64,000 nt of DNA from Candidatus Limnocylindria bacterium (GCA_046566045.1 JBKHXL010000014.1:4917-68916); one strand, 5' to 3'. Shown: positions 32,473 to 36,213, numbered from the stretch's first letter. Made by a program: numbers and translations. The notes: generated by a model not told the origin, from the letters alone.

Positions 32473-33669
32473 GTGCCCGCGCTCGCGGATCGGGCCTGGG
32501 AGCACGAGTTGCGCGGTCGCATCCGCTTCGGGGTCGGCGCGGTCGAGGCGCTGCCCGAGCTGATCTCGGCGGCGGACCCGGCCGGGGGCCGGCGGGCGTT
32601 CATCGTCACCGACCCCGGGGTCCTGGCCTCGGGCGTCATCGAGCGCGTGCGCGGCGTGCTCGCCGGCGGCGGCATCGAGACGGGTGTGTATGCCGCGGTG
32701 GAACCGAACCCGGGCACGAGCTCGATCCTGCGCGGGTCGGCGGCGCTGACCGCGTTCGGGGTGCCGCAGACGGTCATCCTGCCGGTCGGCGGGGGCTCGT
32801 CGATGGACAGCGCCAAGGTCATCTCGCTCCACGCCGCGAACGGCGGCGGCGTCCTGGAGCTCGGCTATCACCGCGACGACATCGTGCCGGGCGGTCCGGT
32901 CATCGCCGTCCCGACGACCGCCGGGACCGGGGCCGAGACCAACACCTACGGGGTCATCACCGACGAGGCGGCCGGGCGCAAGGGGTACGTCGGGCACCCG
33001 TCCGTGCTGCCGGTCTGGTCCGTGCTGGATCCGGCGCTCACCGTGGGACTCCCGCCGCGCGCGACCGCCGCGACCGGGGTGGACGCGATGACCCACTCGC
33101 TCGAGTCGCTGCTGTCCCGCAACCCGAACCCGTTCGCCGAGGGCATCGCCCTGCAGGTCATCCGCACCGTCCGTGCGTGGCTGCCGCGGGCCGTCGCCGA
33201 CGGCTCGGACCTGGAGGCGCGCAGCCAGCTGCTGATGGCCTCGCACCTGGCCGGGATCGGCCAGCAGAGCGGGACCGGGGTGGGCCTGGTCCACGCGCTC
33301 GGACACGCGATCGGGACGCGCGGGCGGCTCCCCCACGGGCTGGCGCTCGCGGTCGTCATGCCCGAGGTCATGGCCTTCTACGCCGACGATCATGGGTCGC
33401 GGGATCGGGAGCTGGCGCTCGTCGGGGTCGCACTCGGCGCGGCCTCACCGACCGAGGACCCGGCGACCGGCGCGGTGGCCGCCATCGGCGCGATGCGCAC
33501 GTTCCTGTCGTCGGTCGGCCTGCGGCCGTCCCTCCGCTCGCTCGGCTTCGACGACGCGCTGCTCGACGTGGTCGCCCAGGACGCCATCGACGACGCCGCG
33601 ATCGACAACTCCCCGCGGCTGCCGACGTTCGACCAGGCGCGCGCGATCCTGGGCTCTGTCCTGGGCTGA
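32473..33669 (+). CDS. Iron-containing (group III) alcohol dehydrogenase
   Basis: 398 aa. Fe-ADH motifs are present: GGGSSMDSAKV, and the His cluster HAL/GHAIG. Confidence 0.85.
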   Translation: MPALADRAWEHELRGRIRFGVGAVEALPELISAADPAGGRRAFIVTDPGVLASGVIERVRGVLAGGGIETGVYAAVEPNPGTSSILRGSAALTAFGVPQTVILPVGGGSSMDSAKVISLHAANGGGVLELGYHRDDIVPGGPVIAVPTTAGTGAETNTYGVITDEAAGRKGYVGHPSVLPVWSVLDPALTVGLPPRATAATGVDAMTHSLESLLSRNPNPFAEGIALQVIRTVRAWLPRAVADGSDLEARSQLLMASHLAGIGQQSGTGVGLVHALGHAIGTRGRLPHGLALAVVMPEVMAFYADDHGSRDRELALVGVALGAASPTEDPATGAVAAIGAMRTFLSSVGLRPSLRSLGFDDALLDVVAQDAIDDAAIDNSPRLPTFDQARAILGSVLG

Positions 33670-33689
33670 CGGCCACCCGCGGCGGTCCG

Positions 33690-34030
33690 CGCCCGGCCCG
33701 TCCGCCCCGGCCCGTCCGTCGGACCTGCCCGGCGTGGCCCGGCCCGGCGTGGCCCGGCCCGTGCGCCGCGGCCTCGCCCCGGCCCGGCCTCGCCCCATCC
33801 GGCCACGCCCCATCCGGCCCGGCCGTCCGCCCCGGCCCGTCCGCCCCGGCCCGTCCGGCCCCGGCCCGTCCGGCCACGCCCCGTCCGACCTGGCCCGTCC
33901 GCCCCGGCCCGCACGTCGCCTCGACCGCCGTGGCCCGCCCCGGCCCGGCCTCGCCCCATCCGGCCACGCCCCGTCCGGCCCGGCCGTCCGCCCCGGTCCG
34001 TCCCGTCCACCCCCGGTCCGCCACTCCGCC
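33690..34030. repeat. C-rich low-complexity degenerate tandem repeats (cggcccgtccg(c/g)cccgg units); G-rich, G4-capable on the minus strand
   Basis: About 340 bp of direct repeats built from the cccgtcc / ccggccc motif. They translate in a shadow frame to PGPSGHAPS runs. No coding signal. Confidence 0.7.
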
Positions 34031-34175
34031 GTGCTTCAGAGGCTGCAGATCGACCTCGAAGGCCGACCATGGCACACCCTCGGCCTGGATCCGTGCCTGT
34101 GAGGCCCGTTCGGGCGTCGAGGCGCACCGGCCCGGAGGCTACAGGGCCTGGCTGCAGTCTCTGAAGCACGCACGA

Positions 34176-34375
34176 TCGTCGCGCGGCCCTCGATGGGCCT
34201 GCGGCGGCCATCGGCGGGGTGGACGGCACCGGCCCGGGGACGGGACGCGGCCTCAGCCTGGGACGATCGTCGCGCGGCCCTCGATGGGCCTTGCGGCGAC
34301 CATCGGCGCGGTGGACGGCACCGGCCCGGGGACGGGACGCGGCCTCAGCCTGGGACGATCGTCGCGCGGGCCTCC
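34176..34375. repeat. About 88-bp direct tandem repeat, 2.2 copies, preceded by a 17-bp inverted-repeat pair (34031-34047 and 34151-34167)
   Basis: Copy 1 at 34176-34263 and copy 2 at 34264-34351 are about 92% identical, with a partial third copy. The inverted pair tgcttcagaggctgcag / ctgcagtctctgaagca brackets about 100 bp. Confidence 0.7.
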
Positions 34376-34658
34376 GGGCGCGACCCACGGATGGCGCGCG
34401 GGATCTCGGCCACGCGTTCGACCTCGGCCATGATCGCGCGGTGAGGCCTCCGGGGCCGGGCGATCGCGCGGCGAGGCTCGCGGGCCGCAGCCGGACGAGG
34501 CGGCCTCACGGCTGGCCCCGCCTGGATCCCAGACCGTCGCCGCCGGCCGCAGCCGGTCGATCGACGACGACGATGGCCGCCGCGCCGTGCCCGCGGGTGG
34601 TCGGCGCGGCGCCCGGCCTGACGCCCAAGGTCCGCCGCCGCCGGCCTGGCGACGTCGC

Positions 34659-35609
34659 CTACCCCGCGTCGACGAGCGACTTGACCTCGCCGATGAAGCG
34701 CTCCATGGTCTCGACGTCGTACGGCGCCGGCTGCTCGGACAGGACGGTCGTGAACCCGAGCTCGACGTAGGGTCGGAGCCGGTCCGCGATCTCCATCGGT
34801 GAACCCTCCCAGAAGGTGTCGTCGTCCTCGATGTCGGTGAGCGGGGTCCGGTTGCGGGCCATCGCCGCGTCGCGGACGCGACGCGCCTCAGCCCGGTCGT
34901 CGCGGATGGTCAGCTTCACCCCGAGGGTGAACTCGATCTCCGAGATGTCGCGGCCGACGATCGCGCAATGCTCCCTGAGCACCTCGACCTTGCGGGCCAT
35001 CACCTCCACCGGCCCCATCGCGTTCCACATGTCCGCGTACATGGCGACCGTACGCAGCGTCTTCTTCTCGCCGCTCCCCCCGATCATGATCGGCAGGCGC
35101 GGCTGGAGCGGCAGCGGGCTGTGGCGCAGGTCGTCGAACGCGTAGCGACCACCAGGCGGTGAGGTGACCGCCCGGCCATCGAGCAGGGCCCGCATCGCGG
35201 CGACCGACTCGTGCATCCAGTCCAGGCGCTGGCCGAAGCCGCTCCCGAACTCGATGCCGTGCGCCGTGTGCTCAGGCTCCATCCAGGCCCCTCCGATGCC
35301 GAGGATGGCCCGACCGCCGCTGATGTGATCGAGGGTGGCGGCCGACTTGGCCATCAGGCCCGGATTGCGGAACGTGTTGGCCCCGACGAGCAGGCCGAGG
35401 CGCGTCCGCTCGGTCGCCATGGCCCACGCGGCCAGGGTCGTCCAGCCCTCGACGATCGGCTGGTACGGGTCGCCGAAGATGGCGTACAGGTGGTCCCAGG
35501 TCCAGAGCGTGTCGTAGCCGAGGCGATCGACGCGCGTCGCAGCATCGAGCATCTCCGGCCAGGTCGCCGCCTGGCTCCAGAGCAGCAGGCCGGTCTTGAG
35601 GTCGGTCAT
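34659..35609 (-). CDS. LLM-class (luciferase-like monooxygenase) flavin/F420-dependent oxidoreductase
   Basis: 316 aa from ATG 35609, TIM-barrel LLM sequence (WTWDHLYAIFGDPYQPIVEGWTTLAAWAMATERTRLGLLV). The track ORF's N-terminal SRPVP extension is the translated microsatellite and is rejected. Confidence 0.8.
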   Translation of the reverse strand: MTDLKTGLLLWSQAATWPEMLDAATRVDRLGYDTLWTWDHLYAIFGDPYQPIVEGWTTLAAWAMATERTRLGLLVGANTFRNPGLMAKSAATLDHISGGRAILGIGGAWMEPEHTAHGIEFGSGFGQRLDWMHESVAAMRALLDGRAVTSPPGGRYAFDDLRHSPLPLQPRLPIMIGGSGEKKTLRTVAMYADMWNAMGPVEVMARKVEVLREHCAIVGRDISEIEFTLGVKLTIRDDRAEARRVRDAAMARNRTPLTDIEDDDTFWEGSPMEIADRLRPYVELGFTTVLSEQPAPYDVETMERFIGEVKSLVDAG

Positions 35610-35627
35610 GGGGTCGCGCAAGCCTCC

Positions 35628-35738
35628 AGGGACGGGACGGGGACGGGACGGGGACGAGGACGGGACGGGACGGGACGGGGACGGGACGGGGACGGGACGG
35701 GACGGGACGGGACGGGACGGGACGGGTCGGGACGGGTC
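35628..35738 (+). repeat. (GGGAC)/(GGGGAC)n microsatellite, about 21 units, 19-130 bp upstream of the LLM gene start; canonical G-quadruplex motif on the plus strand
   Basis: The sequence reads gggacgggacggggacgggacggggacgaggacgggacgggacgggacggggacgggacgggg..., ending in gggtcgggacgggtcggg. It mixes 5- and 6-nt units. Confidence 0.85.
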
Positions 35739-35931
35739 GGGCTCCCAGTCTAGGCTCGATCCGTGCATGGCCGCGGCCATCGCGCATGCTGGTGGTGCGA
35801 CGTTCGCCAAGGAACTCGGGCCAGTCGCCACCGGTCAGGGGCACGCGGGAGACCAGGCACGCGAGAGGCCAGGCACGCGCGACACGGCGAGACGTGCCGC
35901 GCCACGGGCCGCCATCCGGCTTACGGCCCGC

Positions 35932-36213
35932 CTACGCTCGATCGAGCTCGCGGTCGATGGCGCGCAGGATGAAGCGCGCCGCCTCGGCCGACTTGCCGCC
36001 GAGCTTCGCGCCCTCGTCCTGCTCGAGCGCGCGCATGAGGTCGGCCAGGAACAGGTCCATCGACGCGGTCCGCTCGAGCGATCCGTCGGCGAACGCGGCC
36101 TCGAGGCGCGCCACGGCGGCCCGGGCGTTGTCCACCGTGTGGCCCTTGGCGCCGATCAGCTCGCGCACCTCCGCGCGCGCCCGGTCCGCGCCCGCGCCCG
36201 ACGACGGGCTCAC
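35932..36213 (-). CDS. Small hypothetical protein (93 aa), translationally coupled downstream of the GNAT gene
   Basis: GTG at 36213-36211 overlaps the GNAT stop (GTGA). The helical, charged sequence ...DLFLADLMRALEQDEGAKLGGKSAEAARFILRAIDRELDRA is coding-like. No family recognised. The longer 214-aa track ORF is rejected. Confidence 0.4.
   Translation of the reverse strand: MSPSSGAGADRARAEVRELIGAKGHTVDNARAAVARLEAAFADGSLERTASMDLFLADLMRALEQDEGAKLGGKSAEAARFILRAIDRELDRA

Follow-up and report, generated by a model that had tools for sequence, protein, structure and literature searches.

Within the window, the whole 64-kb stretch of DNA that was analysed (73 per cent GC), an intact gene for an LLM-class (luciferase-like) oxidoreductase of 316 aa is preceded by a GGGAC microsatellite and followed by further repeats and decayed coding DNA (Table 1). 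The product scores 211.9 bits against NCBIfam TIGR03560 (cut-off 231.4), and by its sequence scores it is closest to the F420-dependent LLM subfamilies, though it falls under their cut-offs. The locus was compared with 80 orthologous loci from Chloroflexota/Ca. Limnocylindrales MAGs, at protein identities of 72–86 per cent, and a gene order of DNA ligase, GNAT, small ORF, LLM, (OsmC-like), Fe-ADH, SoxD and SoxB is conserved among them. The small upstream ORF, which is without a Pfam or NCBIfam match, begins at a GTG that overlaps the stop codon of the GNAT acetyltransferase gene (GTGA), and it adjoins GNAT in almost all of the 80 Limnocylindria loci. A terminator hairpin sought after this ORF was no better than shuffles (z = -0.32), and read-through into the LLM gene from the upstream operon may therefore occur. 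Between this small ORF and the promoter region of the LLM gene there is also a 16-nt tandem repeat (GGCACGCGAGAGACCA, 2.5 copies, 35840–35879), exactly at which Logan contig L204 ends. An Rfam search of positions 33500–36100 gave no match at E <= 1.

Table 1. Features of the LLM oxidoreductase locus, in window coordinates
Feature	Position	Strand	Basis
Degenerate C-rich array between convergent Fe-ADH and LLM genes	33685..34020	+	TRF; repeat families D1, D2, D5, D7
92-bp tandem repeat, 2.2 copies, 96% identical	34172..34374	+	Repeat search
Decayed OsmC-like gene, two fragments	34354..34613	-	Comparison with intact copies in relatives
LLM-class (luciferase-like) oxidoreductase gene, 316 aa, intact	34659..35609	-	Pfam Bac_luciferase, 3.3e-47
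Shine-Dalgarno GGAGG, 13 nt before ATG	35623..35627	-	Read directly; GGAGG/GGAGA in most relatives
Microsatellite, 21 units, 113 nt	35629..35741	-	TRF, unit parsing, G4 regex, G4Hunter, shuffle enrichment, contig L205
-10-like hexamer TAGACT, context CCTAGACTGGG	35747..35752	-	Conserved in 65/80 orthologous loci
Upstream ORF, 93 aa, conserved small protein	35932..36213	-	Synteny in relatives

Repeats and a decayed gene downstream of the LLM gene

The C-rich array that lies beyond the LLM gene is built of units of ~14–15 nt such as CCCGGCCCGTCCGC, with a higher-order period of ~90 nt. The preliminary description of this DNA had placed here, at 33690–34030, an inverted copy of the motif family that forms the microsatellite. 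A C-rich array is present, but it is a different and degenerate repeat: GTCCC-like units number ~3 and are confined to its last ~30 nt (the 3' end), and only arms of 21–45 nt, at 71–86 per cent, are complementary to the GGGAC array. It is G-rich on the LLM sense strand, with its G4 motifs on the minus strand. Its length is hypervariable, since it is ~170 bp shorter in Logan contig L081 (1504–1722), which comes from a strain 98.7 per cent identical in the flanking gene. Degenerate GC-rich arrays of this kind are also seen at other intergenic sites in relatives, as in L077 and L070.

Between the C-rich array and the 92-bp repeats sits a 19-nt inverted repeat (34030–34048 and 34152–34170, 95 per cent complementary) that encloses 103 nt and is without an Rfam match. 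The tail of the OsmC-like remnant is where the 92-bp repeat begins, and GGGGACGGGAC is present in every unit of this repeat, in the same orientation as the microsatellite. Two stretches of the OsmC-like gene are recognizable, corresponding to residues 13–46 (34512–34613) and residues 108–137 (34354–34440). L009, L016, L022 and L031 each have an intact copy (140 aa, Pfam OsmC) downstream of LLM, and by comparison with those copies the remnant is a decayed pseudogene with its middle deleted.

The GGGAC array

The microsatellite upstream of the LLM gene is resolved by TRF as a repeat of period 5 with 21.6 copies, 88 per cent matches and a score of 167, and unit parsing finds 14 GGGAC, four GGGGAC, two GGGTC and one GAGGAC unit with a terminal GGG. 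The GGGAC/GGGGAC microsatellite of about 21 units reported earlier is thus genuine, as is its place just upstream of the LLM gene, the array beginning 20 nt from ATG 35609. The extent first given for it (35610–35760) was too generous, the true span being 35629–35741, and its distance from the ATG, given as 19–130 bp, was near to the actual 20 to 132 nt. On the LLM sense (minus) strand the array reads (GTCCC/GTCCCC)n and on the template (plus) strand (GGGAC/GGGGAC)n, and its flanks are unique (GGAGGCTTGCGCG... and ...GGGCTCCCAGTCTAGG). Internally, 28 nt are exactly duplicated at a 38-nt offset (35629–35656 = 35667–35694) and the longest pure run comprises seven GGGAC units (35689–35723), a pattern that is expected of growth by slippage.

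The array is not due to chance, because the 10-mer GGGACGGGAC is found 13 times in the 64-kb window against 1.03 expected, and not one of 100 dinucleotide-preserving shuffles reaches 13. All 13 copies lie in the array except for two in the nearby 92-bp repeat units. It is also the highest-scoring repeat of period <=8 that TRF reports from the window and the 80 related loci together (~0.7 Mb).

Nor is it an assembly artefact, because its right-hand end is confirmed by an independent contig (L205) from another short-read run (SRR23730086), which was retrieved by an exact-protein look-up of the upstream 93-aa ORF and matches the window at 99.8 per cent identity over 1146 bp. This contig, the one among those returned by that look-up that reaches the array, spans the ORF and enters the array through the same right end (GGGAC x5, GGGTC, GGGAC, GGGTC, GGGCTCCC). 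It stops at 35699, inside the pure run, where a graph of k = 31 would loop. Exact-protein look-ups with the LLM product (four alternative starts or contig edges) and with P0001 returned no second contig spanning the array, and a flank-pattern scan of metagenome contigs for strain variants of it gave no match. Such arrays break short-read assemblies at exactly these sites, which should serve as a warning.

Every one of the best 120 homologues of the LLM product is 313–320 aa long with a start equivalent to 35609, and the start codon is therefore taken to be ATG 35609, with no N-terminal extension. It could be argued that the array is itself coding, given that the LLM frame can be followed upstream without a stop, across the array, as far as 35831 and that GTCCC holds no stop codon in any frame; translation from GTG 35831, ATG 35780 or ATG 35768 would then add a PSRPV-rich N-terminal extension, and changes in unit number would shift the frame. 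Long open frames are, however, expected by chance at 73 per cent GC, the upstream start codons lack a Shine-Dalgarno sequence whereas GGAGG precedes ATG 35609, and the upstream spacer is without homology in relatives. The extension was rejected on the lengths of the homologues, and we give hardly any credence to a coding repeat.

Promoter signals and the 5' leader

Ahead of the LLM gene, relatives have between 44 nt and >2.5 kb of non-coding DNA, most of which does not align, yet a TAnnnT-type hexamer recurs in 65 of the 80 orthologous loci at 34–63 nt (median 43) upstream of the start codon (TAGACT 24, TACACT 12, TACCGT 11, GATACT 10, TAGAAT 4 and a few others). In relatives the hexamer is followed by a C-rich leader of 20–30 nt (mean 44 per cent C) and then by GGAGG or GGAGA at -10 to -19. 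It is this conservation across otherwise unalignable flanks that leads us to read the hexamer as a -10 element, and the hexamer, C-rich leader and GGAGG would then be the -10 element, leader and Shine-Dalgarno site of the LLM gene. Scans for sigma-70 promoters and intrinsic terminators gave no match, as is expected at 73 per cent GC, where they are uninformative, and no -35 element is conserved at the LLM loci.

In the window TAGACT stands at -143 relative to the LLM start codon and is separated from GGAGG by 119 nt, compared with ~20 nt in relatives. The array fills this gap, leaving 5 nt to the hexamer and 1 nt to GGAGG. Transcription would probably start ~6–8 nt downstream of TAGACT, at ~35740 in the first bases of the array, and with a -10-like hexamer upstream and a Shine-Dalgarno site downstream the array probably lies in the transcribed 5' leader.

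The leaders of relatives also point to where the array may have come from. The context CCTAGACTGGG in the window is the same as that in L016 (CCTAGACTGGG), which continues CGTCCCC, and GTCCC is present in 10 of the 65 leaders of relatives, with GCGTCCCC or GACCGTCCC at the equivalent place; in L037 the leader reads CCCGACCGTCCCTCCGGAGG, compared with CCCGACCCGTCCC...GTCCCTGGAGG in the window. Because the signals are kept on both sides of it and GTCCC is found in the leaders of relatives, the array seems to have expanded from a GTCCC(C) motif native to the leader. Among LLM orthologues the leader ranges from 0 to ~135 nt, being ~30 nt in most relatives and up to 50 in L002. In L001 (3700–3714) and L079 (3989–4003) exactly 6 nt separate the hexamer (TAGACT or TAGAAT) from the ATG and a Shine-Dalgarno sequence is missing, and the LLM mRNA of both is probably leaderless, which would make the leader evolutionarily plastic.

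This anatomy bears directly on the earlier proposal that slippage of the 5- and 6-nt units would shift the spacing of promoter elements and so allow phase (ON/OFF) or rheostat variation. The mixed units are real and the array is upstream of the start codon, but a conserved -10-like hexamer lies upstream of the array with the Shine-Dalgarno site 1 nt downstream of it, the 19 nt between array and ATG leave no room for a promoter, and 113 nt is impossible as a -35/-10 spacer, so that we consider the proposal very improbable. With the -10-like box ahead of the array, slippage would leave the -35/-10 spacing as it is and instead alter how long the 5' leader is and what it contains, and any effect of array length would be exerted through leader length or as a roadblock, a rheostat at best and not an ON/OFF switch. 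Among the marks of a phase-variable simple sequence repeat (SSR), the long tract of 1–7-nt units is there (21.6 copies of period 5), but the tract is found neither in an ORF nor between promoter elements.

Occurrence in relatives and elsewhere

The GGGAC array is absent from all 80 orthologous loci (~0.64 Mb, searched by regex and for an exact (GGGAC)3 pattern), and by this comparison a single lineage carries it. L054 and L079 also have short-period arrays in this spacer; these were considered and set aside, as they look like low-complexity coding tails of inserted reverse-strand genes.

The GGGAC pentamer is nevertheless a recurrent microsatellite, as exact (GGGAC)6 is found in at least 120 metagenome contigs of 31 to 75 per cent GC. 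Among the matches listed, most (GGGAC)n arrays have 6–9 units and only that of L147 (127 bp) is longer than the one in the window. Arrays of 70–127 bp stand before start codons in four unrelated high-GC contigs (L097:3470–3592, L144:6802–6965, L147:12272–12520 and L182:1470–1640). The L097 array is on the template strand, 21–25 nt before a putative dihydropyrimidine-dehydrogenase-like gene, and the L144 array fills the spacer of putative MoxR-like/DUF58-like ORFs and abuts the ATG. Those of L147 and L182 are on the coding strand, the latter just upstream of the TTGACA-type promoter region of a putative TetR-family regulator gene; the gene names in L097, L144 and L182 were read from translations. 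In the 71 contigs of >=58 per cent GC among the 120 matches listed, with crude GC3-based gene calls, no strand bias was found for arrays upstream of genes (10 coding vs 9 template) or downstream of them (12 sense vs 20 antisense), which argues against a general orientation-dependent function.

There is reason, then, to consider that the array is a tolerated product of slippage in a dispensable leader, unselected and without a meaningful effect on LLM. Its presence in one lineage and absence from 80 relatives, the plasticity of leader length, and the lack of orientation bias in arrays elsewhere all favour such neutral expansion. The setting does so as well, in that a pseudogene and other repeat arrays around the locus (the OsmC-like remnant, the 92-bp tandem repeat and the hypervariable C-rich array) fit relaxed constraint. 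Against this, long pure microsatellites are rare in bacteria, and the array is the strongest short-period repeat in the ~0.7 Mb of related DNA. We regard neutral expansion as a serious rival, quite possible though not the reading that we prefer.

G-quadruplex potential of the template strand

The array had also been called a textbook G4 motif, and this is borne out by three measures. The canonical regex (G3+ N1–7, four tracts) matches 35629–35653 and 35662–35741 with loops of 2 nt, in keeping with 21 G3+ tracts that the GAGGAC unit divides into 5 + 16. A G4Hunter-type score has its maximum over the array at 2.2, which ranks second in the window. In an energy model (ViennaRNA with G-quadruplex terms and DNA parameters; a model only) the isolated plus strand folds into five tandem three-layer G4s, at -98.0 kcal/mol with the G4 terms vs -18.3 without. 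The G-tracts were correctly assigned to the template strand, because the LLM gene is on the minus strand and the plus strand is G-rich, and by this modelling the template strand has the capacity for as many as five G-quadruplexes in tandem.

Duplex DNA of ~80 per cent GC resists G4 formation unless it is unwound, and this counts against an explanation in which G4s act as roadblocks. A G4 on the template strand downstream of the start site is reported to block transcription, whereas a non-template G4 enhances it (PMC7341879), and for such a template-strand geometry the block is seen both in vitro and with reporters in E. coli (PMC7341879). The 21 template-strand G-tracts, which would begin at about +1, have this transcription-blocking geometry (PMC7341879), which is a further point against an array of no consequence.

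The leader as RNA

As RNA the array is C-rich, with 70 C, 21 G, 20 U and 2 A in its 113 nt (62 per cent C, 19 per cent G), and folding prediction gives a (GUCCC)n leader that is less structured than shuffles (z = +2.33) and leaves the Shine-Dalgarno site free. An unstructured leader with a free Shine-Dalgarno site is what neutral expansion would also allow. Rut sites are C-rich, G-poor and unstructured over about 70–80 nt, and the leader as predicted has a C-rich, G-poor, unstructured RNA of at least that length.

Control could therefore be imagined at the level of RNA and not through DNA G4 roadblocks, the (GUCCC)n leader acting as a rut-like loading site for Rho that causes premature termination, or pairing with the G-rich array 3' of the gene, so that copy number would tune termination or stability. 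Composition and folding worse than that of shuffles favour this, and an RNA-level SSR mechanism has a precedent in hmw1A (PMC12721329). The predicted duplex of leader and downstream array, at -228 kcal/mol vs -213 +/- 7 for shuffled arrays, lends some support; 6 of 200 shuffles were as good, however, and specific pairing was rejected as a candidate, since the gain is only marginally above shuffles and mostly compositional. In addition, the 3' array is ~640 nt past the LLM stop codon, and a ribosome-binding site 1 nt past the array means that translation could quickly shield the RNA. RNA-level control seems to us improbable.

Origin and possible effect of the array

The explanation that we favour, and hold to be somewhat more probable than not, is that of a lineage-specific leader array, born of slippage and grown from GTCCC(C), in which template-strand G4 roadblocks would lower LLM expression according to copy number. 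Replication slippage would have expanded the native GTCCC(C) motif with which the LLM 5' leader opens, giving on the minus strand the order TAGACT (35752–35747), a start at ~35740, (GTCCC/GTCCCC)21 (35741–35629), GGAGG (35627–35623) and ATG (35609). In relatives the -10 box and the ATG are ~40 nt apart; the expansion would have widened this interval to 143 nt, and gain or loss of units would alter the length of the leader. Template-strand G4s within the ~120 bases transcribed first would then be roadblocks and depress LLM expression to a degree set by copy number, as a rheostat and not an on/off switch. The length polymorphism of the neighbouring C-rich array between strains and the decay seen at the locus supply a supporting context for slippage. 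Dampening of LLM transcription by copy number is our best guess because template-strand G4s are reported to block transcription (PMC7341879) and because the geometry is shared with known G4-forming repeats (PMC4692102).

A stronger form of the same idea would hold that selection maintains the leader as a hypermutable rheostat, a contingency-type locus in which five or fewer template G4s (or the C-rich RNA) set the output of an F420/flavin-type oxidoreductase by unit number. We think this unlikely, and we know of no contingency-type locus in free-living uncultured soil/freshwater Chloroflexota. If it were so, the arrays at start codons in L097, L144, L147 and L182 might hint at a broader and so far unrecognised class of leader microsatellites with G4 potential.

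The useful results are anatomical, namely that the repeat would lie in the leader and not in the promoter, that it appears to originate in a native GTCCCC, and that it belongs to one lineage. If the array does tune expression, then an abundant environmental lineage, as yet uncultured, would join host-adapted pathogens in the heritable but reversible tuning of genes by repeats. The array would then also offer a natural multi-G4 roadblock, at +1 to +115 of a transcript, for the study of how bacterial RNA polymerase deals with template-strand quadruplexes.

Comparison with known systems

Simple sequence repeats that can form G4s in the 5' leaders of bacteria are already known as a kind of element, and the present array is notable for its length and its traceable origin. 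The GGGNATC heptamer SSRs of Xanthomonas and Nostoc are G4-forming, reach up to ~26 units and are mostly transcribed (Rehm et al. 2015, PMC4692102), and they lie preferentially on the antisense strand, <=50 bp ahead of ORFs (PMC4692102). The GGGAC array resembles them as a tandem repeat of G3 tracts in bacterial non-coding DNA (PMC4692102), and it shares their location, 20 nt before an ATG with the G-rich strand as template. It departs from them in its units, which are GGGAC/GGGGAC and not heptamers, in its number, with 21 units where they prefer four, and in its dispersal, with one occurrence in the 64-kb window and none in the ~0.64 Mb of relatives. The phylum differs too, the array being from Chloroflexota (Ca. 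Limnocylindria).

The closest documented case of an SSR-driven change in leader length, by analogy, is hmw1A. The (ATCTTTC)n repeats of hmw1A/hmw2A in Haemophilus influenzae are transcribed 5'-UTR SSRs that give graded expression, inverse to repeat number (PMC12721329), and the repeat there forms one arm of a long RNA hairpin that is cleaved by RNase III (PMC12721329). Like them, the GGGAC array would lie between a transcription start and the start codon. Unlike them, the LLM leader is predicted to be unstructured (z = +2.33), so that no stable RNA hairpin is predicted between the repeat and another part of the leader, and the hmw repeat is AT-rich and without G4 potential whereas the GGGAC array is G4-capable. 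Variation and function have been demonstrated for hmw1A/hmw2A, while the GGGAC array is known from sequence alone.

A third comparison is with engineered G4s (Lee et al. 2020, PMC7341879), with which the array shares a G4 motif on the template strand within what would be the 5' UTR. Such a template-strand 5'-UTR G4, downstream of a transcription start, is reported to block or reduce transcription (PMC7341879, and Holder and Hartig 2014 as cited there). The engineered G4s are single and synthetic and were transcribed by T7 or E. coli polymerase, whereas the array, from an uncultured organism, is natural and holds up to five predicted G4s in tandem.
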